From Chitinophaga pinensis (GTDB lineage: Bacteria; Bacteroidota; Bacteroidia; Chitinophagales; CAIOSU01), in NCBI GenBank assembly GCA_945901065.1, contig CAMDKI010000011.1, positions 16,149 to 80,148 of the forward strand: a DNA stretch of 64,000 bases, in the 5' to 3' direction. A model generated the notes under the pieces. The model was not told the DNA's origin. It did not search any database and was given only the letters and a program-made list of their open reading frames with translations. A program made the translations under genes and the position numbers. Numbering within the stretch: position 1 is the first letter of the stretch; every line of letters begins with the position of its first letter. Shown here in pieces: positions 2,354 to 58,613 of this stretch.

Positions 2354-3628
2354 ATGGAAATGCAACTAAATCACCCACTTAGCCTTTCTGATACTTTTGC
2401 GAAGCGTTTTAAGCATATACGCGCTCAAACGGAAGCTATTTGTGCGCCTTTGAAAGTGGAGGATTATGTGGCACAGCCCATCGTGGATGTTAGCCCCCCG
2501 AAATGGCATTTAGCCCATACTACGTGGTTTTTCGAGAATTTCATATTGTTGCCGCACTTGCCTGGCTACAAGGTTTTTGATACCGACTTTAGCTATATGT
2601 TCAATAGTTATTACGAGAGTGTGGGTGAGCGTGTATTGCGCGACCACCGTGGCCACATGACCCGCCCTAGTGTTGTTGAGGTGTATGAGTATAGGCGCTA
2701 TGTAGATGTAGCCATGCTGCAGTTTTTTGATAAAAATGATGAATTGGATGCGGCATTAAAATACACATTGGAGATTGGCTTACAACACGAGCAGCAGCAT
2801 CAAGAGCTGTTGGTTACGGATATTAAATACATACTCGGGCACCACCCATTGCATCCCGTGTACAAGGTAATTGAGTTGCCAGAAACCGGAACTGCACTAC
2901 CGCCGCAATGGCACGAAATAGCCGAAGGAATTTATTATATTGGATACGATGGTAGTGGATTTTGTTTTGATAATGAACAAGGTGTGCATCAAGTTTACCT
3001 GCAACAATGTCGCATCATGAACCGCCCCATAACCAATGCAGAGTACTTGCGGTTTATGGAAGATGGAGGTTATGCCAATCACCAATGGTGGTTTGCTGAT
3101 GCCTGGGGATGGCTAAGCGAAATGGGCATAAAAGCCCCACACTATTGGGAGCAACATAACGGCCAATGGTACCAATACCAATTGGATGGCTTAAAACCCA
3201 TTGACCCAAATGCACCCGTAACCCACGTAAGTATGTATGAGGCTGCGGCCTATGCCATGTGGGCCGGCAAGCGCCTACCTACCGAACAGGAATGGGAAGT
3301 AGCTGCCAAAACATTGCAGCCTGGAGGGCCTAGTGAGGGCAACTTCCTAGAGCAAAGTAAATTTCAATCGTTACCTACCCAAGAAAATAGCCAATGGTAT
3401 GGCGATGTTTGGGAATGGACCAACAGCGCCTACCTGCCTTACCCCTATTACCAGCGGCCCGATGGTGCGCTGGGCGAGTACAATGGTAAGTTTATGATTA
3501 ACCAAATGGTATTGCGCGGCGGCTCTTGTTCTACGCCACAAAGCCACATTAGGCCTACTTACCGTAACTTCTTTCAGCCGGATAAAAGGTGGCAGTTTAC
3601 GGGTTTTCGTTTGGCGGAGCACGTTTAG
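2354..3628 (+). CDS. egtB: EgtB-like sulfoxide synthase (DinB-like N-domain plus FGE-sulfatase-like C-domain)
   Basis: 424 aa. The motifs WHLAHTTWFFENF and LQHEQQHQELL fit a DinB-type metal site. The C-terminal motifs RLPTEQEWEVAA, GDVWEWTNS and VLRGGSCSTP fit an FGE-sulfatase fold. No egtD-like methyltransferase is adjacent. Confidence 0.75.
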   Translation: MEMQLNHPLSLSDTFAKRFKHIRAQTEAICAPLKVEDYVAQPIVDVSPPKWHLAHTTWFFENFILLPHLPGYKVFDTDFSYMFNSYYESVGERVLRDHRGHMTRPSVVEVYEYRRYVDVAMLQFFDKNDELDAALKYTLEIGLQHEQQHQELLVTDIKYILGHHPLHPVYKVIELPETGTALPPQWHEIAEGIYYIGYDGSGFCFDNEQGVHQVYLQQCRIMNRPITNAEYLRFMEDGGYANHQWWFADAWGWLSEMGIKAPHYWEQHNGQWYQYQLDGLKPIDPNAPVTHVSMYEAAAYAMWAGKRLPTEQEWEVAAKTLQPGGPSEGNFLEQSKFQSLPTQENSQWYGDVWEWTNSAYLPYPYYQRPDGALGEYNGKFMINQMVLRGGSCSTPQSHIRPTYRNFFQPDKRWQFTGFRLAEHV

Positions 3629-3631
3629 CAA

Positions 3632-3690
3632 GTACCGAGTAGCAAGTAGCAAGTATTTTTGATTTACGAAGTACGATTTACGATTGAATG
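3632..3690. repeat. Heptamer array, forward arm, paralog of 2111-2169
   Basis: Reads GTACCGA GTAGCAA GTAGCAA GTATTTT TGATTTA CGAAGTA CGATTTA CGATTGA ATG. Positions 3653-3690 match 2132-2169 at 35 of 38 positions. It begins 3 nt after the egtB stop codon. Confidence 0.9.
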
Positions 3691-3808
3691 TTGGTTAATT
3701 TAAGAGTTGTAAATTGCAACAAAACAAGAGTAATAATTTAAAGGCCATAATACCTTCCAATCTCGTAATCAGGACTTTGCAAAACCTATTTAAAATTTTG
3801 ATAAGTAG

Positions 3809-3850
3809 GTCTTGATACTTGATACTCACTACTTGATACTTATTCTGTAT
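3809..3850. repeat. Heptamer array, reverse arm (TACTTGA dialect)
   Basis: Reads GTCTTGA TACTTGA TACTCAC TACTTGA TACTTAT TCTGTAT. Confidence 0.85.
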
Positions 3851-7063: not shown

Positions 7064-8587
7064 TTACTCCATGTTACTTACTACGGTAAAGCTGCGGTTC
7101 CAGCGTATTTTGCCTTCCATCCAGGTTTTGTATTTATCTAACGATAGCCAAATAAACCAAGCCTTACCTACGATGTGGTCTTCGGGTACAAAGCCCCAAA
7201 ACCGCGAATCGAGGGAGTTGATGCGGTTATCGCCCATCATAAAGTAGTAGTTCATTTTAAAGGTATACTCCGTAACGGCCTTTCCGCCCATAGTGAAAGC
7301 ACCATTGCTGCGCACTATATCGGCTTTCTCATAATCGTTAATGGCCATGCCATAGGTTGTCCAACTCTCTTGGTCTAACTGAATGGTCATGCCGGCATAG
7401 GGTATTTGTATAGGGCCATAATTATCCAAGTTCCATCCTTTTGCTTGCGCAAACTCTGGATACAACTGGCCATCGGTTTGGCCAGGCATACCCACCACCC
7501 GGTAAATGGTATCGATAAACGAAATGGCCTGAATTTTGGCAATCAGTTCATTGTTGTTTATCGGCAAACGGTAGCTATCAATGCCGTGTGCTTCAGGATA
7601 AATATCGCAAAGGTTTACATCCAAGTCGGCCAGTTCTTTTAAAAATGGATAGTTTTTGTACAATTGGGTAATATTCAAATTGCACTCATCGCCATTAGCG
7701 CTACCATGTATTAAACGACCCACACTTAACTCTGGATTGGTATAGGTTACAAAAAACTTTCCTTGCAGGTTTTTGGGTACGAATGCCTTTTCGCCATTAA
7801 TACTCAATACGCCTTCGTTTATCTGCAAGGTATCGCCAGCAATGGCCACGCAGCGCTTTATGTAGTTCTGCTTTTTATCAACCGGAAAATCAGCTTGCGT
7901 ATAATAGTTCTCCACCGGCCAGTTAAACACCACCATATCGTTGCGCTCTACACTCTGAAAGCCCGGCAAACGGTAATAAGGCAAGCTTGGTTTCTCTAAA
8001 TAAGACTTACCACCCGTAATAGGCATATCGCGGTGCACCATCGGGAAGGTGAGCGGTGTATTGGGTACCCTTGGGCCATAGTGTATCTTGCTCACAAATA
8101 AGAAATCGCCTACCATCAAGGTGCTTTCCATAGATGAGGTAGGGATGGTATAAGCTTCGAACACAAACGTACGGATGATGGTGGCGGCCACTACCGCAAA
8201 CAACAACGCATCGGCCCACTCCATGCCTGTGCTGCGCTTTTCCATTACTTTGGGTTCGTATTTCAGGGTTTCTTTGAAATTAAGGAACGGCAAATACAAC
8301 GGCCAAAAGAATATACCGGCCGCTTGCTGTAAAAAGCCACGTTTGCCATACATTTTCAATAGCTCCGTTACCATCCAAATAATTAAGATGATATTGAAAT
8401 AAGGCACTAAAATAAACATCAACCACCAAGGCTTGCGGTCCATTATCTGTATCCAGGCATACACGTTCAGCACCGGTATGCGCGATTTTGAAATCGCTAT
8501 ACCTGCTTTCTCAAAAAACTGGCCCATGAGCATGGTTACCGCGCTCATAAACAACAATGGACCGAATATTAGGACTAACCACATCAT
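7064..8587 (-). CDS. lepB: Signal peptidase I with extended N-terminal membrane domain
   Basis: 507 aa. S26 motifs are [18 protein letters not shown] (catalytic Ser) and [25 protein letters not shown]. It lies downstream of dapB on the same strand. Confidence 0.9.
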
Positions 8588-8588
8588 G

Positions 8589-8630
8589 AGTTGTTATTTG
8601 TTAATTAGTTGATTGGTAATTGGTTAAAAG
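8589..8630. repeat. Heptamer array (TTGGTTA/ATTGGTA dialect)
   Basis: Reads AGTTGTT ATTTGTT AATTAGT TGATTGG TAATTGG TTAAAAG, immediately upstream of the lepB start codon (8587). Confidence 0.8.
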
Positions 8631-8728
8631 TAACAACTCCTACGAACTTGCCAGCAACTATGTTCTTTAATTAGATTTATTTAACGCTTTTATCTGCAAT
8701 CTTTACTGATAAATATCCTATGCTCCAG

Positions 8729-8773
8729 TCAACCAATAACCAGTTAACTAATAACCAATCAACCAATAACCAG
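8729..8773. repeat. Heptamer array (AACCAAT dialect), inverted partner of 8589-8630
   Basis: Reads TCAACCA ATAACCA GTTAACT AATAACC AATCAAC CAATAAC CAG. The 15-mer TCAACCAATAACCAG occurs twice (8729 and 8759). It abuts the dapB stop (8776). Confidence 0.8.
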
Positions 8774-8775
8774 CT

Positions 8776-9495
8776 TTAAAATTGCAACATATCACCCATG
8801 GTGTAAACACCTTGCTTGCCGTGCACCCACTCGGCGGCTTTTACAGCGCCTTGTGCAAAACCCAAGCGAGAATGCGCCACATGGCTTATCTCAATAGTAT
8901 CAATGCCCGATTGGTAAGTAACCAAGTGTGTACCTGGCACGCCTGCTTCGCGCTTTGATATAATGCTCAATTGCTCCTCTCCTTCTGCTGCTTGGTTTAC
9001 CCACACGTGCTTGCGGTCTAATTCTTCGAGCACACCTGTTGCTAGGGTAATAGCAGTGCCGCTTGGCGAATCGAGTTTCTCGGTATGGTGTATCTCTTCA
9101 AGGGTTACATCATATTGCTCTTGCTCGTTCATTACCTTGGCGAGGTATTTGTTCACTGCAAAAAAGATATTGACCCCAATGCTGAAATTACTAGCCCAAA
9201 ATAGGGTACTATTGCTCTCTTCGCATTGTATAGTTAACTCAGGCAAGTGTTTGTGCCATCCAGTAGTGCCTACTACAACTGGCACGCCCGCCTCAAAACA
9301 CTTATTTATATTGAATATGGCAGTTGCTGGTGTACTGAACTCAATAGCTACATCAGCCTCCTTAAGCATCGATGTAGTCAATGGTCCGTCGCTATCACCA
9401 TCGTATTTCAAAATCACTTCATGTTGGGGTATGCCATCAATAACGCTTTCGATAGCCTTGCCCATTTTACCATATCCTAACAATGCTATCTTCAT
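8776..9495 (-). CDS. dapB: 4-hydroxy-tetrahydrodipicolinate reductase
   Basis: The ORF track extends to 9555, but MKIALLGYGKMGKA (ATG at 9495) is the Rossmann start. It forms an ATGA overlap with the stop of the upstream gene at 9492. EIHHTEKLDSPSGTA is the DapB signature. Confidence 0.9.
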   Translation of the reverse strand: MKIALLGYGKMGKAIESVIDGIPQHEVILKYDGDSDGPLTTSMLKEADVAIEFSTPATAIFNINKCFEAGVPVVVGTTGWHKHLPELTIQCEESNSTLFWASNFSIGVNIFFAVNKYLAKVMNEQEQYDVTLEEIHHTEKLDSPSGTAITLATGVLEELDRKHVWVNQAAEGEEQLSIISKREAGVPGTHLVTYQSGIDTIEISHVAHSRLGFAQGAVKAAEWVHGKQGVYTMGDMLQF

Positions 9496-10194: not shown

Positions 10195-11091
10195 TTATAC
10201 ATTAAATACATCAAGGATGCGGTCCAAATCGTCGTCGGAGTAGTAAGCGATGGTTATTTCACCTTTGCCTCCTTTACGGGCCTTCACTTCTACTTTAGTG
10301 CTTAGTAACGTACTTAGCTTGTCCTGTATTTTGCGATAAGCCAGCGGCTGCAATTCTTTAGTACTTTTTAACTTTTTGCCGCTGGTGCTACTCTGCTGTT
10401 TTTTCGCCAACTCCTCCACCTGGCGCACCGATAGGCCTTTCTTTACTACTTCTTGGTATATGGCTAATTGTATTTCGGGCTGCTCAATGGCAATCAAGGC
10501 ACGGGCGTGGCCCATGGTCACATCGCGGTTTTTAATACCGTTCTGTATTTCGGGTGGCAAGCGCAATAAGCGTAAGTAGTTGGTAACGGTGGTACGGTTC
10601 TTGCCCAAGCGCTTACTCAGGTCTTCTTGCGTAAGGCTGCACTCATCCATCAAACGCTTATAGTTAATCGATATTTCGATGGCGTTCAGGTCTTCGCGCT
10701 GGATGTTCTCAATCAACGCTATTTCTAGCATCTCTTGGTCGTCGGCTTTGCGCAGGTACACAGGTACCTCCGTCAATCCGGCCATTTTACTGGCACGCAG
10801 GCGGCGCTCACCGCTTATCAATTGAAACTTGTTGTTGCCCAACGAGCGAACCGTAATTGGTTGGATAACGCCATGGTTACGGATGCTTTCGGCTAGGTCT
10901 TCCAAGGCTGCTTGGTCAAAATCGGCACGTGGCTGAAAAGGGTTCACCTCAATCTGCCCTAGCGGAATGCTGGTATTGTTTACTTTATTGCGCAACTCAG
11001 CGGCTACTTCTGGGTTGGCCTTCATGTCATCATTAATGCCACCCAGCAAGGCACGGATGCCTTTTCCTAAATCTTCTTTCTTTGCGCTCAT
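10195..11091 (-). CDS. parB: Chromosome partitioning protein ParB/Spo0J
   Basis: 298 aa. It has the ParB box QPITVR...LISGERRLRASKMAGL and an HTH (LTQEDLSKRLGKNRTTVTNYLRLLRL). A 4-nt overlap links it to parA. Confidence 0.9.
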   Translation of the reverse strand: MSAKKEDLGKGIRALLGGINDDMKANPEVAAELRNKVNNTSIPLGQIEVNPFQPRADFDQAALEDLAESIRNHGVIQPITVRSLGNNKFQLISGERRLRASKMAGLTEVPVYLRKADDQEMLEIALIENIQREDLNAIEISINYKRLMDECSLTQEDLSKRLGKNRTTVTNYLRLLRLPPEIQNGIKNRDVTMGHARALIAIEQPEIQLAIYQEVVKKGLSVRQVEELAKKQQSSTSGKKLKSTKELQPLAYRKIQDKLSTLLSTKVEVKARKGGKGEITIAYYSDDDLDRILDVFNV

Positions 11092-11897
11092 TCCTCGAAG
11101 TCCAAAATTTTATCAGCACTCTTCACCCAAGTATTGTCGTGCTTTTGCACCATCTCTCGGGCAAGGTTCATATAGTTAATACTACCCGAGCTATCGGCAT
11201 CGTACAAAATGGCAGGCTTGCCAGCACTTGGTGCCTCACCTAACTTGGTGTTGCGGTGTATTATGGTTTCGTACACCAGCTCATCGAAGTGGCGTTTTAC
11301 CTCGGTGGCTACTTGGTTGCTCAGGCGCAGACGGGTATCGTACATGGTTAGCAAAATGCCATCAATGTCCAAATCGTTGTTCAATCGGTTTTGTACAATT
11401 TTGATGGTATTGAGCAACTTGCCCAAGCCCTCCAAGGCAAAGTACTCACACTGCACTGGCACCAATACGGCATCGGCAGCGGTAAGGGCATTAACGGTAA
11501 CCAAACCCAACGACGGCGAACAATCGACAATCAAATAATCGTAGTCGTCCTTAATCTCCTCAAACACCCCTTTCATAATGCGTTCGCGGTTGGGGTGGTT
11601 AATAAGCTCAATCTCGGCACCCACCAAATCCAAATGCGACGGCATCAGCCACAGGTTCGGCACCTCGGTTTCCAGAATCAAATCCTTAGCGCGGGTTTCG
11701 TTTACTAGGCAATCGTACAAGCTCGCCCTTACGTTCTTAGGGTCGATGCCCACACCAGAAGTAGAGTTGGCCTGCGGGTCGGCATCAATCAGCAGTGTTT
11801 TGTATTCTAGTACAGCAAGGCTGGCAGCCAAGTTAATGGCCGTTGTGGTTTTGCCTACCCCACCCTTCTGGTTCGCTATCGCAATAATCTTACCCAT
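11088..11897 (-). CDS. parA: ParA/Soj chromosome partitioning ATPase
   Basis: MGKIIAIANQKGGVGKTT (deviant Walker A) starts at the ATG at 11897. The ORF-track start at 11927 is a TTG extension. Confidence 0.9.
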   Translation of the reverse strand: MGKIIAIANQKGGVGKTTTAINLAASLAVLEYKTLLIDADPQANSTSGVGIDPKNVRASLYDCLVNETRAKDLILETEVPNLWLMPSHLDLVGAEIELINHPNRERIMKGVFEEIKDDYDYLIVDCSPSLGLVTVNALTAADAVLVPVQCEYFALEGLGKLLNTIKIVQNRLNNDLDIDGILLTMYDTRLRLSNQVATEVKRHFDELVYETIIHRNTKLGEAPSAGKPAILYDADSSGSINYMNLAREMVQKHDNTWVKSADKILDFEE

Positions 11898-12105
11898 CCT
11901 AAAACCCGTGTTTTTACTTGTTTTCAACGGTGCATACCGTTGTTTTGAAGTGGATGTAAAGATACGATAATTAAAGGAATAGCGCGCCCGAAAACCGCAA
12001 TTTTATGAACACGATATACACAAAATGGACACTATTTTTGGGGATAATGGGTGGGTAAAAATGGATTGGGTTGGTGGTGAAGGGGGTAGGTTTTTACGGA
12101 TGCCT

Positions 12106-12233
12106 GTTCGGATTTGCAATCCGAACTATGGAGCTACGGATTTGTAATCCGTTATACTACGGGTATGTTATGTTCTTGGTGTTTCGGCGGATTGAAAATC
12201 CACGGCTCGGTTGCAACGGATTATAAATCCGTC
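12106..12233. repeat. Cluster of four small hairpins sharing the stem CGGATT/AATCCG
   Basis: GTTCGGATT-TGC-AATCCGAAC (12106-12126, 9-bp stem), ACGGATT-TGT-AATCCGT (12136-12152), GGATT-GAA-AATCC (12189-12201) and ACGGATT-ATA-AATCCGT (12217-12233). Confidence 0.85.
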
Positions 12234-12238
12234 GCGGC

Positions 12239-12247
12239 GGGGGGGGG
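12239..12247. repeat. Homopolymeric G9 tract
   Basis: Nine consecutive G directly after the fourth CGGATT hairpin. It is intergenic. Confidence 0.9.
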
Positions 12248-12478
12248 TAATGGAAATTAGCGGTAGTATTTGGGATGCACTGCACTAGTGGTCGGTGCAT
12301 CCTTAAATCTTCACAAACACAATAAATTGAAAATCAATAAGTTACAAAATAAAAAGCGAACAACTCACACATAATCAATCACTTACATTTTAATAGGCAA
12401 ACACGCTCAAACTCGCGCCAATAAACGATTCGTGGACGACAAAACTCGATTAATTCAGGTTCAGCACTTCACCGGTGC

Positions 12479-12537
12479 AACCACCCCCAACCCCTCCTTT
12501 TTCTAGGCTGCACAGGCTTGGCGAAGGAGGGGAGCTG
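12479..12537. repeat. CCTCC/GGAGG hairpin repeat, copy 2 (forward)
   Basis: AACCACCCCCAACCCCTCCTTT - 23-nt loop - AAGGAGGGGAGCTG. Confidence 0.8.
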
Positions 12538-12640
12538 TCAAGGGCACAGCCTTAACTAACTTCATCAGGACCTTAAAATCCTATACTTTAACATCGAAAA
12601 TAGTAATTTGCAATAGTGCCCCTATATGTCATAAAGTTGC

Positions 12641-12719
12641 CAGCTCCCCTCCCTGCCTACGGCAGGCAGGCTTCGAATGGCCTTTTTGCGCGCTGCGAAA
12701 GGAGGGGTTGGGGGTGGTT
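12641..12719. repeat. CCTCC/GGAGG hairpin repeat, copy 3 (reverse orientation)
   Basis: CAGCTCCCCTCC ... AAAGGAGGGGTTGGGGGTGGTT. Its 22-nt end is the exact reverse complement of 12479-12500. It has an inner CCTGCC-TAC-GGCAGG hairpin. Confidence 0.8.
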
Positions 12720-12793
12720 AAACGCAACACAACCCCCGTCAAACCTCACTTCTTGGACGACAAAACTATGCATTAAGAGAAACACCTTTTCCA

Positions 12794-12801
12794 TAATTTT
12801 G
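12794..12801 (+). promoter_or_regulatory. Candidate Bacteroidota -7 promoter box (TAATTTTG) for the TA operon
   Basis: An exact match to TAnnTTTG lies 32 nt upstream of the ATG at 12833. No clear -33 TTTG was seen. It overlaps an inverted copy of the ACGACAAAA motif. Confidence 0.3.
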
Positions 12802-12832
12802 TCGTTAAATGATAGAATCATTAACTTAGAGT

Positions 12833-13084
12833 ATGGCTCATATCAAAATAGCAGAAACCAAGGAACATATCCATCAATTGATTGATCAATTGAACGATCC
12901 TGATTTGCTTGACCTGTATTTAAAACTGCTGTTAAAACATGTCCAATTGGCAACGTTTGAACCCACTGCAGATGAAATTCAAGCTATTGAAGAAGGCTTA
13001 GACTCCATCAAAAAACACGGCACGGTTTCGCATGAAGATGCTGTGGCTAGGTTGCGCAGTAAGTATCCTAATTTGATACTGTAA
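12833..13084 (+). CDS. Putative antitoxin of a type II TA pair
   Basis: 83 aa, acidic and helical. Its stop TAA overlaps the toxin ATG (TAATG at 13082-13086). I recognise no domain; the call rests on pairing with the ParE/RelE-like ORF. Confidence 0.6.
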   Translation: MAHIKIAETKEHIHQLIDQLNDPDLLDLYLKLLLKHVQLATFEPTADEIQAIEEGLDSIKKHGTVSHEDAVARLRSKYPNLIL

Positions 13085-13377
13085 TGAAAGCAATTCGATG
13101 GTCAGAACAGGCTATTGAAGATTACGACCGTAATCTGGAGTACCTCCAAATTGAGTGGACCGAACGCGAAGAAATCATCTTCAACTTAAAAGTAGCCAAA
13201 ACCCTGAGGAACATATCTACAATGCCAGAATTATACCCAGTGGCCATTATCGGTTCAACGATCGTAAGAAAAGCAGTGATAACCACACAAATCACCCTGT
13301 ACTACCTTGTTTTAGAGGACCAAATTCTGCTGGTGAGGTTCAAAAACAACTTTCAAGCACCCAATAGCGGATTGTAA
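13084..13377 (+). CDS. ParE/RelE-family type II toxin
   Basis: 97 aa. The pattern MKAIRWSEQAIEDYDRNLEYL...ITLYYLVLEDQILLVRF matches the ParE/RelE plasmid-stabilisation toxin layout. Confidence 0.7.
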   Translation: MKAIRWSEQAIEDYDRNLEYLQIEWTEREEIIFNLKVAKTLRNISTMPELYPVAIIGSTIVRKAVITTQITLYYLVLEDQILLVRFKNNFQAPNSGL

Positions 13378-13464
13378 CTCACAAACCCACGCTACCAAAA
13401 CCCACCCTCCAAGGTTATCAACACCACACCAGTATTTCCCCCAAACTAAAACCCATACTTTCAA

Positions 13465-13472
13465 TACTTTTG
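13465..13472 (+). promoter_or_regulatory. Candidate -7 promoter box (TACTTTTG) for the FMN reductase/SBP genes
   Basis: An exact match to TAnnTTTG lies 31 nt upstream of the ATG at 13503. No clear -33 element was seen. Confidence 0.3.
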
Positions 13473-13502
13473 TAATTACAATAGTACTTCGTAAATAGAA
13501 CC

Positions 13503-15704: not shown

Positions 15705-15746
15705 AGTTGCGGGTTGCGGGTTGCGAGTTACGGGTTACGAGTTAAT
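15705..15746. repeat. Heptamer array (GGTTGCG dialect), 6 units
   Basis: Reads AGTTGCG GGTTGCG GGTTGCG AGTTACG GGTTACG AGTTAAT and starts 3 nt after the SBP stop codon. Confidence 0.9.
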
Positions 15747-24880: not shown

Positions 24881-25558
24881 ATGAGCGAGCAGATAATAGA
24901 AGCGAAAAATATAAGCAAGTACTTTCACGACCCCGTGAAGGTAAAAGTGTTGAAAGAGGTTTCGTTCTCAATCAACAAAGGTGAGTTTGTATCTATAACT
25001 GGTAAGTCGGGTTGCGGCAAAAGTACTTTGCTCTATATCCTATCAACCATGGATACCGACTATGAGGGGGATTTGTATTTTGACGGGGAATTGTTGCGCG
25101 ATAAAAAACGAGACCAGTTGTCGCACATCCGCAATAAGAAAATTGGCTTCGTGTTCCAGTTTCACTATTTGTTACCAGAGTTCTCGGTACTTAAAAATGT
25201 AATGCTGCCGGGCCTAAAGTTGGCTGAGTTGAGTGCTCAAGAAGTAGAGCATAATGCCATGGAAAAGCTTCGCATATTGGGCATTGACGACCAAGCCAAG
25301 AAACTAGCCAATCAGCTTTCGGGCGGACAAAAGCAGCGAGTAGCTATTGCTCGCTCGCTCATTAATAACCCACTAATTATAATGGGCGACGAGCCTACCG
25401 GAAACCTAGATAGCAAAAACGGGTTGATAGTATTCGATATTTTCAAGGAATTGGCTGCCATGGGTCAATCGCTGCTAATTGTTACCCACGATCAAGATTT
25501 TGCCGATAAAACCGATAGGATTATTGAAATGGATGATGGAAAAGTGATAAAGCAGTAA
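24881..25558 (+). CDS. ABC transporter ATP-binding protein (MacB/LolD type)
   Basis: 225 aa. Walker [10 protein letters not shown], signature LSGGQKQR, Walker [13 protein letters not shown]. Confidence 0.9.
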
Positions 25559-25574
25559 GTTTTGTTAGCATTAA

Positions 25575-25609
25575 GTATCAAGTACCAAGTATCAAGTATC
25601 AAGATAACC
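25575..25609. repeat. Heptamer array, forward arm (GTATCAA dialect), 5 units
   Basis: Reads GTATCAA GTACCAA GTATCAA GTATCAA GATAACC, 17 nt after the ABC ATPase stop. Confidence 0.9.
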
Positions 25610-25634
25610 TATTTCCATAGCAAATGTGAAAACA

Positions 25635-25675
25635 AAAGCCTCGAAACATATCATGTTCCGAGGCTTTAATTTATT
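25635..25675. terminator. Bidirectional rho-independent terminator between ABC ATPase gene and queA
   Basis: A 15-bp stem with one mismatch (AAAGCCTCGAAACAT / ATGTTCCGAGGCTTT) and a 3-nt loop, with an A-run before and a T-rich run after. It sits in the spacer of the GTATCAA module. Confidence 0.8.
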
Positions 25676-25690
25676 ATTTACATATCAAGG

Positions 25691-25774
25691 TACTTAATAC
25701 TCAATACTTGATACTTAATACTCAATACTTGATACTTGATACTTGATAATTGATACTTGATACTTGATACTTTA
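25691..25774. repeat. Heptamer array, reverse arm (TACTTGA dialect), 12 units
   Basis: Reads TACTTAA TACTCAA TACTTGA TACTTAA TACTCAA TACTTGA TACTTGA TACTTGA TAATTGA TACTTGA TACTTGA TACTTTA. It abuts the queA stop codon (25775-25777). Confidence 0.95.
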
Positions 25775-26821
25775 TTACAAAATCAACATTGCATCGCCAT
25801 AGGTAAAGAAGCGGTAATTTTCCTTAATGGCTTCCTCATAAGCTTTCATTATTAGATCGTAACCACCAAATGAAGCGTTCATGATCAACAAGCTTGACTT
25901 AGGTAAGTGAAAGTTTGAAATCATGCAATTGGCAATACTAAACTCGTGTGGTGGGTGAATAAACAAGTTCGTCCAACCTTCCATGGGTTTAAGCAAGTGC
26001 TGTGCCGATACTGCCGACTCCATAGATCGCATACTAGTGGTGCCTACTGCACAAATTTTATGCTTACCTTCTTTACCTTTATTTACAATATCGCAGTTCT
26101 TTTGATTGATAAAAAAGTACTCGGCATCCATTTTATGCTTGCTCAAATCTTCCACATCAATGGTACGGAAAGTACCCAGACCAACGTGCAACGTAAGTTC
26201 AGCAAAGTTTACACCCTTAATCTCTAGGCGCTTCATCAACTCCTTACTAAAGTGCATTCCAGCAGTTGGGGCAGCCACAGCGCCTTCGTTGCTTGCAAAT
26301 ACGGTTTGGTAGCGGTCTTTATCTAAATCTTCTGGTTTGCGTTTAATGGCTTTTGGCAGTGGCGTTTCGCCAAGACTGTATAGCAATGCCTTAAACTCTT
26401 CATAACTACCATCGTGCAGAAAACGAATCGTACGGCCCCGTGAGGTGGTATTGTCAACAACTTCCGCTACCAAATCATCTTCGCCAAAGTAAAGTTTGTT
26501 GCCTACCCGTATTTTACGGGCAGGGTCAACCAATACGTCCCAAAGTTTATTCTCAGCATTCAATTCACGAAGCAAGAACACTTCAATTTTGGCTCCAGTT
26601 TTTTCCTTTTTGCCATACATACGCGCCGGAAACACTTTCGTGTTGTTCAACACCATTACATCGCCATCATCAAAGTAACCCAAAACGTCGCGAAACATCT
26701 TGTGTTCAATAGTGCCTGTAGCACGATTGACTACCATCAAGCGGCTTTGGTCACGTTCATCATTAGGGTAAGAAGCAATTAGGTTGGGAGGTAATTCAAA
26801 GTTAAACTGGGATAACTTCAT
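25775..26821 (-). CDS. queA: S-adenosylmethionine:tRNA ribosyltransferase-isomerase
   Basis: 348 aa. [19 protein letters not shown]...RDQSRLMV and [12 protein letters not shown] are QueA hallmarks. Confidence 0.9.
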
Positions 26822-39632: not shown

Positions 39633-42600
39633 ATGAACAAACATATACTCACCATACTATTAACGCTTTCGTGCTTGAGTACCATAGCACAAAACGTTAA
39701 TTACCAGATATATACCACCCGGTACTATACCGGCAGGGGCAATTCGGATTTTTGGACAGACGATGACCCAAGGTGGGTAGTGTTGTTTTATGACAACACC
39801 GACGGTTATGTATCCGGACAAGGCGTGATACGCTCTATTGACAATGGCCTAGATGGTGCCGCTTGGGACGACCCTACCGACTTTTTATGTCGCACCGAGA
39901 ATAACACAGCAGCCACTTCTCTAAGGGTAAGGCTTGAAGCTTGGGAAGACGATGCGTGCGGGGGCTCAGATACCTACAACACAGGGTGCGCAAACAATGA
40001 TGAGGCCTATTGCAATATACTAAGTGGTAACATCAATTTTAGGTCGGATGCTATTTGTAACTGGAACACCTACAACATCTATTGCAACGGCAATTGGCAA
40101 GTAGATTATCGGGTAAGGTGGGAATGGGCCAATGCCCCTGCTATAACCAGCCAGCCCTCTCCTACCGACAGAAACTTGTGTATCGGCAATAACACCACGC
40201 TCACCGTAGTTGGCGATGCATCGGCAAGGTTTTACAAATGGCAGGTAAACACTAATACCGGCCTACCTCAAAGCCAATGCGCAACCAGTGGCTGGGCCGA
40301 TATTAGCGGTGCTACCAGCAGCAGCTACACCCCACCCCAAACAGCAGGAGCTAGACAATACCGGGTGCTAATAACCAGCAACTGTACTGCAGACTTTACC
40401 TCAAAAACAACTACTTCTAACTGCGTAAGGGTAAACTATTTTCCATACTCCCCCCCTATTATCAGCGCCGCTTGCGGAAACAGCATCTTTATTGGGTCTA
40501 CCCAAAGCTTTGCAGCTACTTTGCCCCCGGCGGTTGGCGCCATAGGCAATGGTTCATACGTGTGGACGGTAAGCCCAACTACTGGTGTAACTATTGCAAC
40601 TGCTACCAGTTCATCAACCAACATTACTTTTGCCAGTGCGGGCAGTTTTACCGTAACCCTAACTACCGATGATAGCGGAGGCCCTTGCAATACCACCAGC
40701 TCAAGCTGCACGGTAAACGTGAGTGCTCCCGATTGCGACTTTGTTTATGTAAATAGCTCCACCTCAAACACGTTAGTAGGCTCCTCTAACTCGCCAGTAA
40801 CACTTGCAGCAGGCATAGTGCTCGCTAGCGGCTCAGGTCGGAAGCACATTCGTATGGCCAGTGGCACTTATAATATAGCCACTATACTAGATATACCCGC
40901 CGACGTAATTATTGAAGGTGGCTACGTACAAACTGGCAATAACTGGACCAAAAGCAGCGCTGCTGTTACGAATATCAACTTTACCGGTGAGGAAACCACT
41001 AGCGGAGTAAGCCACCGAATGGGTTTCAGATCTAACGCATCGAATGGATGGACACTGCAAGACCTTACCATTAGCACAGCTTCCACAACATTAACAGGAA
41101 ACGACCCATCTGGGCGAGGTAAATCAAACTATGCTATTTGGATAAATAATTCTACTGGTACAAATATTGTACGCTGTGTTATTACTAGTGGTAATGCAAC
41201 AAATGGTGCCGCTGGAACAGCTGGTGGTGCTACAGGTGGCAACGGTTCCGCGGGAAATAATGGATCGCAAGGTACATGTGATGATAACATTTCAGGTGCC
41301 GCTGGCGGTGCCGCTCGCACAGGCCCAGGCTCTGGGACTAGAAAAGGTGGCGATGGTGGAGCTGGCGGCCGTGGTGGAAACTATGGCAATAACGCAGGGT
41401 TAGTTGGCTCATTAGGTACAAATGGTGGCGGTGGTGCAGCAAGAGACCCATCAGCAGGTACCGCTGGTGGCGGTGGCAACCCTGGAGGAACAGGAGGTAG
41501 TGCATCCGCATCGATTTCTACCTCACAAGCAAGTAATGGAATTGCAGGGACTCCAAGCTATACTGCGGGGTCAAGACCAACAAACTATTCTGCATCCACT
41601 TATTTCAACCCTGGCACACAAGCTGCAAATGGTGGTAATGGAACTGGCGGTGGCGGTGGCGCTGGCGGCGGCGGCGGCGGCGGACAAGGCTGTACGTTTT
41701 GTAACGATGGAAACGGAAATGGTGCTGGTGGCGGCGGTGCTGGTGGCGAGGGCGGCCAAGGCGGTGATGGAGGATTTGGCGGTGGCGGAAGCTTTACGGT
41801 GTACGTAACTGGAACGGCTCCAACATTTTCTACTACTAATTTAACTTTTGGAAGCGCTGGAGCTGGTGGCAATGGCCAAGGTGGTGGTGGTGGTGGAACT
41901 GGCGGTGACGGTGGAACTGGAGGAAGCACTTGTACTGGTGAAGTGGGACGAGGTGGTAATGGAAGTAAAGGTGGCGCTGGTGGTGCTGGAGGCCGTGGCC
42001 AAGATGGTGCAAATGGTTTAACTGGAGCTTATTTTTTAAATGGCTCAGTGCAAAACAATCCATCAACAACGGTAGCCAACCCAACCAATGCACTCATAGT
42101 TAACTATGATAATACCAAAGGCTGTACCAACTCGGTAATTAACTTAACCAAAGCAAATGGCAATTGGAGCAGTTATGGCACCGGCGGCGATGAAGTATTT
42201 GATATTACCAGCGCCCTCTCAAGCCAGAATGTTACGGCTACCAATATATCTGTTTACTATTCAACTGGCTCAACTGGCTGGAAGGATGTATCAACTACTA
42301 CCGATACCCGTGCCCGGTTACTATTAATCTCAACTGATAGAACCCCGCCGGTAATTAACGGAATCACCTCGCCTATTTGCGCCGATGGTAGTTTAAGCCT
42401 TACTGTTACTGCAAATAGCCCATCGAGTGTGGTGGCCTATGAGTGGACCATACAAGCACAATCGGTGACTGGATTGAGTACCCCAACACCTATTCTTACT
42501 TCGAGCAGCGCTACCCCAACCTTTGCTTTCCCTAATGCTGGCTCATCCAACATTACATATCAAGTAAAGCTCAGGGTGCAAGACCAATGCTGTGGCTGGT

Positions 42601-44006
42601 CAATTCCGGTGTTTGGTTTCGTAACCGTAGCACCCGACCCCACTCCACCAACCGCAACCAAGAGCCCAACGGATGCAATTGTTTGCGAAGGTCAGACCCT
42701 GACGCTAACCAACCCTACATCGGGGTTAGGCGGAGCAGGCACTTGCAGTTTCGAATATAGGTATAATGACGGTTCTGGTTTCGGCGCTTGGAGTGGCACA
42801 GTGCCTAGTTTTGCGGCCGTACAAGGCACCAACACCATTGAAATACGCACCAACTGCAACGGCACTGGTTGCGATGTGAGCGATGAAACCGCTTATAGTT
42901 GGACAGTAGCCGCCGACCCTGCTTTGCCTTCGGCAACAGCATCGCCAAACATTGATACCGTATGCGTTGGAGCAACCCTTACTCTTACTGGGGTAAGCCT
43001 AGGCCAAGGTGGAACGGGCACTTGCACACTGGAGTATGCCTCCTCAACCAACGGTGGCAGCACCTATACTGCTTGGAGCAGCACGTTGCCATCTTTAACC
43101 GCAACGGGTACCGATAATCGCATTAAAGTGCGCAGCAGCTGTACTGGTTTGGGTTGCGGCACCTCGCTTGAGGCGGTGTTTATCTGGAACATCAAACCAG
43201 ACCCGATAGCCCCAACCATTACCAAAAACCCTACCGATGCCACCGTTTGCGTTGGTGCTACGGTAGCGGCTAGCGTTACGGCCTTTGGTACCGGCGGCGC
43301 TGGTAGCTGCCAGGACGAATTGCGCTACAGTATTGATAACGGCGCTAACTGGAGCGCTTGGGGCACCACTATACCTTCGGTAGTGACCACGGCAGCTGGT
43401 ACGTTCATTATCGAAAGCCGACGCAATTGCCCTGCATCTGGTTGCAACTCCAACGTAAATAGCGTGAGCTGGACCGTTGTTGCCGACCCAACCATACTTA
43501 CCCAGCCAATAAACGGAACGGCCTGTTATAACGGCACCCATACCCTTACCGTTGCGGCTGCAGGCGGTGTGGGCACCTTTAGTTACCAGTGGCAAGAATC
43601 GACTACAGGTTGCGGTGGTAGCTTTACCAACGTGGGTACCAACTCAACTAGCTACACTACCGGTACGCTTACCGCAGCCAGGTATTATAGGGTAGTTGTT
43701 TCGCAAACGGGCAATGCCTGTAGCAATGTTACTTCAAACTGTGTAACGGTCTCGGTGCAGAGCAATTTAGCTTCATCAACATGGAACGGCAACGTAAGCA
43801 CCGATTGGTATAATCCTGCCAACTGGAGTAACTGTGTACCAGGCGATAATACCAATGCCATAATACCTGCTGGAAGGCCAAGGTATCCGCAAATTGTTAC
43901 CACCTCGCCACTTTATAATGGCAATGCAACTTGCAAAACCATAAACATAGCCAATGGCGCTACAGTAGATATTAAAGGTAACGCAGTGCTAGATGTGCTA
44001 AACTAA
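39633..44006 (+). CDS. Giant secreted surface protein with Cys-rich N-domain, Ig-like Cys-containing repeats, beta-helix-like segment and PGRS-like glycine-rich core
   Basis: 1457 aa. Signal peptide MNKHILTILLTLSCLSTIAQ. There is a glycine-rich region at nt ~41187-42030 and four ~90-aa repeats at nt ~42626-43757 (xDPxxPxxxxxPxxxxxCxGxxxTLT...W...C). It ends at a strong terminator and no T9SS CTD pattern is visible. Confidence 0.85.
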   Translation: MNKHILTILLTLSCLSTIAQNVNYQIYTTRYYTGRGNSDFWTDDDPRWVVLFYDNTDGYVSGQGVIRSIDNGLDGAAWDDPTDFLCRTENNTAATSLRVRLEAWEDDACGGSDTYNTGCANNDEAYCNILSGNINFRSDAICNWNTYNIYCNGNWQVDYRVRWEWANAPAITSQPSPTDRNLCIGNNTTLTVVGDASARFYKWQVNTNTGLPQSQCATSGWADISGATSSSYTPPQTAGARQYRVLITSNCTADFTSKTTTSNCVRVNYFPYSPPIISAACGNSIFIGSTQSFAATLPPAVGAIGNGSYVWTVSPTTGVTIATATSSSTNITFASAGSFTVTLTTDDSGGPCNTTSSSCTVNVSAPDCDFVYVNSSTSNTLVGSSNSPVTLAAGIVLASGSGRKHIRMASGTYNIATILDIPADVIIEGGYVQTGNNWTKSSAAVTNINFTGEETTSGVSHRMGFRSNASNGWTLQDLTISTASTTLTGNDPSGRGKSNYAIWINNSTGTNIVRCVITSGNATNGAAGTAGGATGGNGSAGNNGSQGTCDDNISGAAGGAARTGPGSGTRKGGDGGAGGRGGNYGNNAGLVGSLGTNGGGGAARDPSAGTAGGGGNPGGTGGSASASISTSQASNGIAGTPSYTAGSRPTNYSASTYFNPGTQAANGGNGTGGGGGAGGGGGGGQGCTFCNDGNGNGAGGGGAGGEGGQGGDGGFGGGGSFTVYVTGTAPTFSTTNLTFGSAGAGGNGQGGGGGGTGGDGGTGGSTCTGEVGRGGNGSKGGAGGAGGRGQDGANGLTGAYFLNGSVQNNPSTTVANPTNALIVNYDNTKGCTNSVINLTKANGNWSSYGTGGDEVFDITSALSSQNVTATNISVYYSTGSTGWKDVSTTTDTRARLLLISTDRTPPVINGITSPICADGSLSLTVTANSPSSVVAYEWTIQAQSVTGLSTPTPILTSSSATPTFAFPNAGSSNITYQVKLRVQDQCCGWSIPVFGFVTVAPDPTPPTATKSPTDAIVCEGQTLTLTNPTSGLGGAGTCSFEYRYNDGSGFGAWSGTVPSFAAVQGTNTIEIRTNCNGTGCDVSDETAYSWTVAADPALPSATASPNIDTVCVGATLTLTGVSLGQGGTGTCTLEYASSTNGGSTYTAWSSTLPSLTATGTDNRIKVRSSCTGLGCGTSLEAVFIWNIKPDPIAPTITKNPTDATVCVGATVAASVTAFGTGGAGSCQDELRYSIDNGANWSAWGTTIPSVVTTAAGTFIIESRRNCPASGCNSNVNSVSWTVVADPTILTQPINGTACYNGTHTLTVAAAGGVGTFSYQWQESTTGCGGSFTNVGTNSTSYTTGTLTAARYYRVVVSQTGNACSNVTSNCVTVSVQSNLASSTWNGNVSTDWYNPANWSNCVPGDNTNAIIPAGRPRYPQIVTTSPLYNGNATCKTINIANGATVDIKGNAVLDVLN
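41187..42030 (+). repeat. Glycine-rich low-complexity coding region (GGxGG-type) with a (GGC)6 microsatellite at 41664-41681
   Basis: The translation is dominated by motifs such as GGDGGAGGRGG, GGGGAGGGGGGGQG, GGQGGDGGFGGGGS and GGTGGDGGTGGS. The minus strand gives a mirror poly-Pro ORF. Confidence 0.9.
42626..43757 (+). repeat. Four tandem ~90-aa Cys-containing Ig-like repeats within the giant protein
   Basis: Each repeat starts xDPxxPxxT and contains C.G.T(L/V)T...GG.G.C...W(S/G)...C..(S/T)GC...W(T/N)(V/I). Confidence 0.8.
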
Positions 44007-45497: not shown

Positions 45498-45537
45498 TAG
45501 TTGGTTGATTAGTTATTAGTTAATTGGTTATTTGCTA
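45496..45537. repeat. Heptamer array (TTGGTTA dialect), solo arm
   Basis: Reads AGTAGTT GGTTGAT TAGTTAT TAGTTAA TTGGTTA TTTGCTA and begins within the ahcY stop codon. Confidence 0.8.
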
Positions 45538-50093: not shown

Positions 50094-51332
50094 ATGAGAA
50101 AAGAGTTGATATTTCTTATAGTTACCGTTCTACTTTTGGCTGCCGATTTGTACGCCTTTCAGGCGGTAAAAACTTCTCTTCGTGACAGTTCGGATAATGC
50201 CAAGCGCATTGGCTACATCATTTTCTGGAGTTTTACGGTCATTACCGTAGCCACTATTCTATCCAACTTTATATACTCAGTAAGAGATTGGCCCAATGGT
50301 TTAAGGTCAATCGTTTTCAGTATTATCGCCCTCGCATTTTTGGGCAAGTTGTTTATTATCGTATTCTTGATTATTGACGATTTCCAGCGGTTTATCCGAT
50401 GGATAGCTTCAATGGTTTCTGCTCCTGCAGATGGTGGACCTACCAATATAAGCAGGGCTAAATTTTTAAGCCAAACAGGTATTGTGGTCGCTACCGTGCC
50501 GTTAATTGCTGGCATGTGGGGTATATTTAAAGGCGCACACGATTATACGATTCACCGCATAAAAGTTACCTTGCCCAACCTGCCCGATGCATTTAATGGG
50601 TTGAAAATTGTTCAACTATCGGATATACATGCTGGTAGTTTCCCTTCGGCTAACCCCTTGAAGCTTGCAGTGGATATGGTAAACAAAGAAAATGCCGATT
50701 TGCTTTTCTTTACGGGCGACCTAGTAAACAATATTACCGAAGAGGTTTTGCCTTATGTTTCGGTTTTTGGGCAAATGAATGCCAAAATGGGCAAATACTC
50801 GGTGTTTGGCAACCATGATTATGGCGACTACGTAGGATGGGATTCGAAAGAAGCTAAACTGCAGAACATTGAAAACCTTAAAAAGGCACATGGAGATATG
50901 GGTTGGCGCTTGCTTTGGGATGAGCACGTTTACCTTGAAAAAGATGGACAACAAATAGCCCTTATTGGTGTGCAGAATTGCAGCGGCACCAAGAGTTTCC
51001 ATACTTATGGCGACCTAGACAAAGCCTACAAAGGCTGCGAGGCGCCCGTAAAACTCTTATTATCTCACGACCCCACTTTCTGGGATGCCAAAATACGCGA
51101 CTTTGAAGACATCGACATCACTTTTGCTGGCCACACGCATGGTGCGCAATTTGGTATTGAATGGGGTAAAGTACGCTGGAGCCCAGCACAGTATATTTAC
51201 AAGCAATGGGCTGGCTTGTACCAAAAAGGCAAACAATACATCTACGTAAACCGTGGCTTTGGCTACCTAGGCTTCCCGGGCCGAATAGGTATATTGCCCG
51301 AGATTACGGTAATGACGTTGGTGAAAGAATAG
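50094..51332 (+). CDS. Membrane-anchored metallophosphoesterase
   Basis: ATG at 50094. N-terminal TM helices are followed by QLSDIHAG, FFTGDLVNN, GNHDYG and GHTHGAQ. Confidence 0.8.
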   Translation: MRKELIFLIVTVLLLAADLYAFQAVKTSLRDSSDNAKRIGYIIFWSFTVITVATILSNFIYSVRDWPNGLRSIVFSIIALAFLGKLFIIVFLIIDDFQRFIRWIASMVSAPADGGPTNISRAKFLSQTGIVVATVPLIAGMWGIFKGAHDYTIHRIKVTLPNLPDAFNGLKIVQLSDIHAGSFPSANPLKLAVDMVNKENADLLFFTGDLVNNITEEVLPYVSVFGQMNAKMGKYSVFGNHDYGDYVGWDSKEAKLQNIENLKKAHGDMGWRLLWDEHVYLEKDGQQIALIGVQNCSGTKSFHTYGDLDKAYKGCEAPVKLLLSHDPTFWDAKIRDFEDIDITFAGHTHGAQFGIEWGKVRWSPAQYIYKQWAGLYQKGKQYIYVNRGFGYLGFPGRIGILPEITVMTLVKE

Positions 51333-51335
51333 GTC

Positions 51336-51426
51336 AATTTGAAAATGAGGTAATTTGATAATTTGGAAATGAAAAGACATTAAAAAAGTCATTTTCAAAT
51401 TCGCACATTTTCAAATTTTCAAATTA
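51336..51426. repeat. Octamer-array module (AATTTGAA dialect): two inverted arms with 12-nt spacer
   Basis: The forward arm reads AATTTGAA AATGAGGT AATTTGAT AATTTGGA AATGAAAA (51336-51375). The reverse arm 51388-51426 is the complement of AATTTGAA AATTTGAA AATGTGCG AATTTGAA AATGAC. It lies between convergent genes and overlaps the E2 stop codon. Confidence 0.9.
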
Positions 51427-52687: not shown

Positions 52688-52834
52688 AATTTGAAAATTT
52701 GAAAATTAGGTAATTTGGAAATGGTGTGTTTAGTAATGCAATTAAAAAGGGGAGGTAAACTCAACTTGAAAAGTCTGGACTTAGCCAAAAATCATTTCCA
52801 AATTTTCAAATTTCCTCATTTTCAAATTGAATTA
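52688..52834. repeat. Octamer-array module (AATTTGAA dialect): two inverted arms with ~63-nt spacer
   Basis: The forward arm reads AATTTGAA AATTTGAA AATTAGGT AATTTGGA AATGGTGT (52688-52727). The reverse arm 52791-52834 is the complement of AATTTGAA AATGAGGA AATTTGAA AATTTGGA AATGAT and overlaps the M16 peptidase stop codon. Confidence 0.9.
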
Positions 52835-58552: not shown

Positions 58553-58560
58553 TTTTAACG

Positions 58561-58609
58561 AATTAACCAATAACTAATTAACCAATCAACTATTAACTAA
58601 TCAACCAAA
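58561..58609. repeat. Heptamer array (AACCAAT dialect), 7 units, filling the phnX-like/phnW spacer
   Basis: Reads AATTAAC CAATAAC TAATTAA CCAATCA ACTATTA ACTAATC AACCAAA. Confidence 0.85.
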
Positions 58610-58613
58610 CCGC

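Follow-up and report, generated by a model that had tools for sequence, protein, structure and literature searches.

The 216-nt spacer between a convergent ABC-ATPase gene and queA, in a 64,000-nt stretch of Chitinophagales DNA (contig CAMDKI010000011.1 of assembly GCA_945901065.1; the whole stretch is referred to here as the window), holds a GTATCAA array, a terminator hairpin, and a TACTTGA array. On balance, these are best interpreted as inverted, hypervariable heptanucleotide simple sequence repeat (SSR) arrays set around the terminator of two convergent genes, where the outer stem that the arms can form may act as a second barrier or protect the 3' ends, and where slippage and copying would keep the arrays in place. 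The structure is the Bacteroidota counterpart of the hairpins formed by the short tandemly repeated repetitive (STRR) sequences of the cyanobacteria, and of the GGGAATC arrays that occur in pairs in Xanthomonas. Comparison of the assembled alleles demonstrates that the arrays change between strains by whole 7-nt units or by 21-nt blocks, and these stepwise changes point, therefore, to slipped-strand mispairing.

The ATPase gene (24881-25558, + strand, from the list of open reading frames, ORFs) encodes an ABC transporter ATPase of the LolD/MacB type (NCBIfam TIGR02211, 6e-72), and is the last gene of an HlyD-permease-ATPase operon, with its stop codon at 25556-25558. The left arm (25575-25603, + strand) starts 16 nt past this stop and consists of four units, GTATCAA GTACCAA GTATCAA GTATCAA G, which Tandem Repeats Finder (TRF) places at 25573-25603 (period 7, 4.4 copies, 91% matches). 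It is separated from the terminator by a unique sequence of 31 nt (25604-25634), which is kept in the alleles labelled A, B, E, and F, and is single-copy elsewhere. The intrinsic-terminator hairpin AAAGCCTCGAAACAT-ATC-ATGTTCCGAGGCTTT (25635-25667) was recovered both by the terminator scan and in the fold centroids, and is kept in alleles B, E, and F; its T-rich tails lie at 25668-25682 in the + direction and at 25625-25634 in the - direction. The right arm, separated from the hairpin by 23 nt, is formed by 12 contiguous TACTTGA-type units (25691-25774, + strand), and directly adjoins queA (25775-26821, - strand), the gene for the tRNA preQ1(34) S-adenosylmethionine ribosyltransferase-isomerase (NCBIfam NF001140, 2.5e-133), whose stop codon reads TTA on the + strand (25775-25777). 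TRF delimits the right array at 25691-25772 (11.7 copies, 88% matches), with a super-period of 21 nt (91%), the super-repeat being a duplicated block of three units, (TACTTAA TACTCAA TACTTGA)x2, in the window allele. The original prediction had proposed this layout of a forward array, an inner terminator, and a 12-unit reverse array at the queA stop, and it is borne out by both the sequence and TRF. Its fifth left unit, GATAACC, matches GTATCAA at one of seven positions, which leaves a left arm of four units rather than five.

Both arrays are heptanucleotide SSRs, that is, units in the range of 5-11 nt arranged head to tail over a length beyond that expected by chance. With up to two mismatches allowed, the 14-mer TACTTGATACTTGA occurs 19 times in the window, where 0.36 matches would be expected, and none of 100 shuffles reached this total. 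All 19 matches of this two-unit probe fall in three modules, at 2110-2300, at 3626-3841, and in the ATPase–queA spacer, where the arms are 89% complementary over 37 nt.

The consensus scan calls the terminator on the - strand only, where a GC-rich stem-loop of 15 pairs (six of them GC) is followed by the U-tract of the tail TGTTTTCACA. The + strand version is weaker, given an A.C mismatch in the stem and an interrupted T-tract, so that the earlier description of a bidirectional terminator holds for the - strand and is plausible, in an asymmetric form, for the + strand. The spacer folds with z-scores of -9.6 as + strand RNA, -11.7 as - strand RNA, and -10 as single-stranded DNA. The full-length RNA is predicted to form the outer stem (-66 kcal/mol for the + strand and -82 kcal/mol for the - strand), as is the single-stranded DNA, and the terminator hairpin is present in the predicted centroid structures. 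In the predicted terminated transcript of the ATPase gene, the proximal arm is unpaired in the centroid structure, and in that of queA it is weakly self-paired, with no partner arm in either case. Four unrelated spacers at the queA site all fold as outer arms around an inner hairpin, with z-scores of -6 to -11.

Eleven alleles of the spacer were obtained by looking up the exact QueA and ATPase proteins, together with the other members of the QueA 90% cluster. A common terminator and inner sequence, within flanks that are 92-98% identical, unite the window allele, allele B, L225, and L226/L227. The window allele, found in two independent assemblies (queA DNA 100%), has four units on the left and 12 on the right in a spacer of 216 nt, while allele B (L009, L010, and L019; two NCBI metagenome-assembled genomes, or MAGs; queA DNA 98% identical to the window) has three and six in 167 nt. 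The queA DNA of the other two is 92% identical to the window, with seven units in each arm and a spacer of 196 nt in L225 (one JGI sample), and seven and six units in 189 nt in L226/L227 (two assemblies). The QueA proteins of L225 and L226 are identical, and their spacers differ by exactly one 7-nt unit. Expansion and contraction through slippage, as originally suggested, is thus supported by the series of same-terminator relatives (4/12, 3/6, 7/7, and 7/6), by the one-unit difference, and by the duplicated 21-nt block. The polymorphism of unit number that was anticipated among close relatives, itself a mark of heptanucleotide SSRs, ranges from 3 to 7 on the left and from 6 to 12 on the right.

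A second cassette lineage (L005, L018, L228, L229, L224, and L231) has CACAAGA/TCTTGTG arms around a different terminator, with arm lengths of approximately two units (L224, L231) or three units (L229); in L005, L018, and L228, the arms reach 3.5 units, and the left one contains an insertion. A third terminator, with GTTACGG/CCGTAAC arms, is found in L021, whose QueA is 89% identical. The arms remain complementary, then, even where one heptamer family has given way to another. The type of cassette is incongruent with the divergence of the flanks, given that allele C (L005/L018, queA DNA 96.8% identical) differs from the window allele, while L225 (92%) has the window cassette. This indicates either that the two types of cassette persist across lineages or that recombination within the conserved flanks swaps one for the other. 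Most of the alleles are represented in at least two independent assemblies, and L225 (7/7) and L229 in one. In allele C, the left CACAAGA arm is broken by a 17-nt GC-rich near-palindrome, CCTGCCGGCAGGCAGGC, which is absent from L224 and L229.

The two sister modules of the TACTTGA family bear on the origin of the arms. The first, in the divergent ftsK/egtB spacer (2110-2300), contains a left arm (2110-2134), an inner GATTTAC array (2139-2166), and a right arm (2239-2300). The segment at 2110-2134 matches the reverse complement of 2260-2284 at every position (100%), and even the variant unit has its counterpart (GTGAGTA/TACTCAC); this exact mirroring of the order of variant units implies copying from arm to arm, through either hairpin-templated synthesis or gene conversion, for which selection alone would be insufficient. 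The second module, detected by TRF past the stop of the EgtB-like gene (3626-3841), has a left arm at 3626-3656 with a GTAGCAA variant, a GATTTAC array at 3661-3687, and a right arm at 3811-3841, which is identical over 30 nt to 2255-2284. Taken together, the mirrored unit and this 30-nt identity indicate that the arrays were copied between arms and between loci, rather than having grown independently. The single piece of evidence for the arm-to-arm step is the mirrored variant unit at 2110/2260. Extension of a palindrome outward from the terminator was also considered, and was rejected; the sequence between terminator and arm is not palindromic, which leaves continuous fold-back copying from the hairpin unsupported. 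The EgtB-like gene (2354-3628) is flanked on both sides by these paralogous inverted-arm modules, which have in common the GATTTAC array (46 nt, 91%) and the identical 30-nt right arm around unrelated interiors, and the pair looks like the product of a duplication of the module or of conversion between the loci.

On the interpretation favored here, a transcript that ends at the inner terminator would carry its proximal arm alone, as unstructured (GUAUCAA)n RNA, and a read-through transcript of either gene would gain the distal arm, which would lead, in turn, to an outer stem of approximately 30-37 bp enclosing the terminator. This stem would form solely in read-through RNA or in single-stranded DNA, where it may provide a second barrier or a target for RNase III, limiting antisense read-through into the convergent gene, or, alternatively, may block 3' exonucleases. 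The arrays themselves would persist through slippage and arm-to-arm copying, which regenerate them in otherwise unconstrained DNA. From the predicted folds and from the analogous systems, it appears likeliest that the stem has a modest role, either as a fail-safe against read-through or in protecting the 3' ends, as has been proposed for the STRR hairpins (PMC2670836), and a neutral by-product is nearly as likely. When the RNA is read in the direction of the neighboring gene, all three frames of the proximal arm, (GUAUCAA)n, lack both stop and start codons; in the distal arm, UGA occurs in every frame.

Several observations weigh against a functional stem of this type. Any role of the arms at the level of the RNA would be pure inference from the predicted structures, and neither distal arm is followed by a U-tract. 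The arms of the window allele are unequal (four units on the left against 12 on the right), which indicates that no precise stem is being maintained. A close relative (L230) and a number of more distant relatives have a bare terminator without arms. The neighboring gene of L230 also differs, however, and none of the alleles represents a clean empty site between the same flanks. Half of the array-bearing spacers of the window contain a single array with no partner, and arrays are also found at start codons and in divergent spacers, as at 2110-2300 between ftsK and egtB. In addition, all the unit counts are derived from short-read assemblies, in which very long perfect arrays could be under-counted. 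Logan unitigs (L012-L017, L006, L007, L219, and L223) end inside the arrays, for example 155 nt past the ATPase stop and 32 nt past the queA stop; the arrays thus break k-mer assemblies, and copy number can be lost.

Many of these features would also be expected of a by-product with no function, that is, of arrays that spread by slippage and hairpin-templated copying through unconstrained DNA until they meet a coding boundary or a terminator, and this account is possible, albeit less probable than the one preferred. The arrays abut stop and start codons alike, in all three types of spacer, their arm lengths are unequal and fluctuating, their orientation at stop codons follows no rule (19 versus 13), armless relatives exist, and the exact mirroring of variant units indicates copying rather than selection. 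In the literature, too, the heptamer excess is ascribed to polymerase slippage (Mrazek et al. 2007, as related in PMC4679880 and PMC4692102). What a functionless array does not readily account for is that both arms are kept in every queA–ATPase allele examined, in three unrelated families and at flank identities of 85-98%. The same may be said of the recurrence of a few families at many loci (within 64 kb, TACTTGA and AACCAAT occupy three loci each), which random local slippage does not predict. A quite different use of the heptamers, as sites of approximately 7 nt each for a protein, either an RNA binder of the cold-shock or S1 type on the 3' untranslated region (UTR) or a nucleoid protein on the DNA, would make each array a tunable landing pad. 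The same families do occur at many unlinked loci, terminated transcripts are predicted to leave the proximal arm single-stranded, and the binding of S1, Csp, or CsrA has been proposed for TAACTGA arrays, with CspB binding one heptamer per protein (MacGregor 2015, PMC4679880). This alternative is nevertheless improbable, given that at least six families coexist within 64 kb and that the family at the queA site depends on the strain, which no single specific binder would fit. There is also no orientation bias at stop codons, and no candidate binder gene adjoins the arrays.

The occupation of one site by three unrelated cassettes in close relatives, the incongruence between cassette type and flank divergence (allele C against L225), and the pair of paralogous modules around the EgtB-like gene might all be taken as signs of mobility. 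The arms would then be the terminal inverted repeats of a cassette inserted at gene ends, similar to a miniature inverted-repeat transposable element (MITE) or to the repetitive extragenic palindromes (REPs) and bacterial interspersed mosaic elements (BIMEs). In all eight of the modules tested, however, the interior is single-copy in the window and among approximately 230 fetched loci (BLAST recovered orthologous copies only), which is at odds with a MITE with a conserved core in this sample. The arrays alone are shared, and their unit number varies; in L224, arms of approximately two units surround the same terminator as in alleles with longer arms, which points to growth in place. The ORFs scanned in the 64 kb included no transposase and no gene similar to a REP-associated tyrosine transposase (RAYT), and this origin is regarded as very unlikely. 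Invertons with inverted repeats on either side are common in the Bacteroidota, and the arms offer 30-37 bp of inverted homology through which recombination could flip the interior. The orientation of the interior is constant, however, in 11 of the 11 assemblies with the TACTTGA cassette, no recombinase gene is present in the window, and the near-symmetry of the terminator means that inversion would alter little, leaving an inverton hardly credible.

A number of other identities were examined and set aside. The units are non-palindromic tandem heptamers rather than the imperfect palindromes of 20-40 nt that make up REP and BIME sequences, and no RAYT transposase of the IS200/IS605-like type was found among the ORFs of the window. 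A CRISPR array is excluded by contiguous units without unique spacers and by the absence of cas domains from the window; the search of the window ORFs for transposase, RAYT, recombinase, and cas domains yielded none. No known RNA family was recovered, with zero Rfam matches in the window at the gathering thresholds, and with the best sub-threshold scores, driven by the terminator hairpin, at or below 31 bits against thresholds of at least 49. Integron attC-like sites seem improbable, given that the genes are housekeeping genes in mixed orientation and the units are unlike GTTRRRY. Matches to sigma-70 promoters inside the arrays (TTGATA-17-GATACT) are a by-product of the repeat, and the promoters of the Bacteroidota differ.

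The association of the arrays with gene ends is real, although not exclusive. The arrays described at the stop codons of the EgtB-like, SBP, ahcY, queA, E2, M16, and HAD genes are all present, and, under an automatic criterion, arrays occur in four of six convergent spacers, against one of 12 tandem and one of nine divergent spacers; the weaker arrays detected by TRF raise the tandem and divergent counts. Start codons are also adjoined, at 8592 (lepB at 8587), 52688 (E2 at 52680), 58610 (aminotransferase at 58614), and 57600 (dnaX). The array positions on which the original prediction had based a 3'-UTR role are therefore upheld as an enrichment at 3' ends, but a role specific to the 3' UTR is not supported as stated, given the arrays at start codons and in divergent spacers, and the lack of a strand bias at stops. 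Strand preference was assessed in 120 metagenome contigs carrying the TACTTGA heptamer, where the two versions next to stop codons (19 versus 13) did not differ significantly. An apparent bias at start codons (19 of 22) was rejected as an artifact, since the GTATCAA reading, which has no stop or start in any frame, distorts the ORF calls. Naive ORF calls can run through the arrays, as in the ORFs starting at 14034, 20866, and 52788.

Period 7 predominates well beyond this spacer. Under a three-unit criterion, the window (44% GC) contains 12 period-7 arrays (428 nt in total), of which ten are intergenic, although non-coding DNA makes up 12% of the sequence. Most of the arrays of periods 5 and 6 lie in coding sequence, and there are almost none of periods 8-10. 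In 1.24 Mb of sequence around queA in 78 other Bacteroidota genomes, surveyed for arrays of at least four units, period 7 accounts for 58 arrays, against eight, six, and two for periods 6, 8, and 9, respectively. This over-representation of period 7 and its intergenic location, in the window and in the survey, are characteristic of heptanucleotide SSRs. Many Flavobacterium species carry the period-7 arrays, as do other Chitinophagales and a Lewinellaceae MAG, with few in the Saprospiraceae. Inverted arms at a stop codon occur also in L052 (Sphingobacteriales) and in the Lewinellaceae MAG L081, in which GGGGATT/AATCCCC arms lie at 644-760 and 12373-12520. Look-ups of exact proteins also placed the window on a 722-kb metagenome contig (ERZ27280281), and freshwater lakes and ponds have yielded MAGs, labelled as Sphingobacteriales or Chitinophagales bacterium, with near-identical DNA. 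The sequence (TACTTGA)3 is present in at least 120 metagenome contigs whose GC contents run from 0.26 to 0.70, and this wide range led to the rejection of the TACTTGA unit as a marker, since it is not diagnostic of any lineage.

The window contains at least six families of arrays (TACTTGA, GATTTAC / ATCGTAC, AACCAAT, GTTGCGG, AGACACA, and the 8-mer AATTTGAA), and in six of its spacers, inverted arms of a single family stand at both ends, so that the spacer as a whole folds into one long stem. A module of the TTGGTTA / AACCAAT family fills the dapB-lepB spacer (8592-8775), and single arrays of this family lie at 45498-45535 and 58553-58610. Inverted AATTTGAA / TTCAAATT arms are found between the convergent metallophosphoesterase and E2 genes (51331-51425), and again from the M16 stop codon to the E2 start codon (52688-52828). 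No canonical terminator was detected between the arms of the other inverted-arm modules of the window, including the 8-mer pair, and the arms may thus be the sole hairpin in these modules. That the arms are more than terminators, as originally suggested, is a reasonable proposal for the queA site, where a GC-rich terminator does exist apart from them. The 8-mer modules flank the E2 acyltransferase gene on both sides, and both are identical in a second genome, L221. The GTTGCGG/AACCCGC family is found at 15706-15744 in the window and in the queA spacer of the relative L021 (1734-1898), and several arrays of this family lie in the same orientation upstream of queA in many Flavobacterium (L060, L075, L076, and L092, at approximately 8600-9450).

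A break in synteny at the AGACACA array was also considered in L221, and was rejected, given that the breakpoint lies inside dnaX. At L221:1-1035 (GCA_964202975.1), the sequence is identical to the window downstream of this point in dnaX, and unrelated upstream, where dnaX is 72% identical and split, and the neighbor differs; the junction is probably a chimeric join in the MAG. Two further segments of the window contain unusual sequence. A region of 1.5 kb without any ORF longer than 100 amino acids (11928-13502) adjoins parA-parB (10195-11927, - strand). This region has no excess of DnaA boxes and zero Rfam matches, and a replication origin beside parAB was rejected on the former result. A gene at 39633-44006 encodes a protein of 1457 amino acids with a weak match to a PKD domain, and contains GGC/GGT-rich in-frame repeats (41646-41993) that are unrelated to the heptamer arrays.

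A possible functional parallel is found in the REP and BIME sequences of the enterobacteria, which are extragenic, form inverted pairs, and often lie at the 3' end of a gene or between two convergent genes. Each REP is an imperfect palindrome of 20-40 nt, mobilized by RAYT transposases, and the protection of the upstream mRNA from 3' exonucleases by these elements is established. The queA-site module may likewise work as a stem that protects against 3' exonucleases, but it differs from REP sequences in its tandem array units and in the lack of a RAYT gene among the window ORFs.

The heptamer sequences of the cyanobacterial STRRs were reportedly described by Mazel in 1990. As in the STRRs, the arrays of the ATPase–queA spacer are intergenic, have a unit of 7 bp, and can be folded into hairpins; they cannot be counted as STRRs proper, which are defined on filamentous cyanobacteria, since the host is a Chitinophagales or "Sphingobacteriales" MAG and the unit sequences differ. 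The hairpins formed by the 7-bp tandem units of STRRs, as in the hupS-hupL intergenic region, have been proposed to contribute to transcript stability or translational coupling (PMC2670836). In Xanthomonas, approximately 90% of GGGAATC arrays are intergenic, at a mean distance of 28 nt from the neighboring ORF (Rehm et al. 2015, PMC4692102). In 70-75 cases, two nearby arrays in opposite orientations are capable of forming a stem-loop or a cruciform, which is the same architecture as that of the queA-site arrays, and the arrays vary widely in length and sequence between close relatives (PMC4692102). The GGGGATT arrays of Nostoc have been studied as quadruplex formers (PMC4692102), and the locus of the Lewinellaceae MAG, L081, resembles them in its use of GGGGATT/AATCCCC. 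Unlike those of both Xanthomonas and Nostoc, the units of the queA site are AT-rich and cannot form G-quadruplexes, several families are present per genome, the host belongs to the Chitinophagales, and the pair encloses a separate GC-rich terminator.

Heptanucleotide repeats are the most abundant class of long SSR in the prokaryotes, for which slippage was proposed (Mrazek et al. 2007, as cited in PMC4679880 and PMC4692102). The arrays described here agree with that class, as these citing papers portray it, in the dominance of period 7 among units of 5-11 nt and in the intergenic bias of units that are not a multiple of three, and depart from it in the inverted pairing and the enclosure of a terminator, which form no part of the class in those accounts. 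MacGregor (2015, PMC4679880) reported direct TAACTGA repeats in the Beggiatoaceae, the Cyanobacteria, and five Bacteroidetes. As in the present case, these are intergenic heptamers of Bacteroidetes (Flexibacter, Gramella, and Aequorivita), with other heptamers in the same spacers and related strains without arrays. In contrast with the arms of the queA site, they are mostly direct, in a single orientation just upstream of start codons, with one inverted case, and have a different unit. A literature search for heptamer repeats in Flavobacterium, Chitinophaga, or Cytophaga yielded nothing beyond the papers already cited.

The arrays belong, then, to a class already described, which the original prediction had not recognized, that of heptanucleotide SSRs with STRR-like hairpins and the paired arrays of Xanthomonas, and represent no new kind of system. 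An excess of heptamers was recognized in the intergenic DNA of bacteria by 2007, and in that of the cyanobacteria by 1990, but has no established function. What the locus adds is the demonstration that an uncultured freshwater lineage of the Chitinophagales, together with many other Bacteroidota, carries such arrays at high density, and a natural series of alleles in which one terminator is flanked by 3 to 7 units on the left and by 6 to 12 on the right, alongside two or three unrelated cassettes at the same site. This series offers material for testing whether the length of the arms, or their pairing, matters. On the practical side, the arrays break short-read unitigs, and the stop-free reading of one strand can mislead ORF callers.

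A bolder interpretation, which seems rather unlikely at present, is that the arms are a selected structural element, in which the outer stem is kept through complete replacement of the sequence, with three families at one locus and two persistent lineages of cassette. If this were true, it would represent covariation at the level of the whole element. Some Bacteroidota would then possess a widespread and tunable insulator, or a device for the ends of mRNAs, built from slippage-prone heptamers, in which the length of the arms would be a rapidly evolving dial, and which might be read by a putative heptamer-binding factor or a factor that processes double-stranded RNA.

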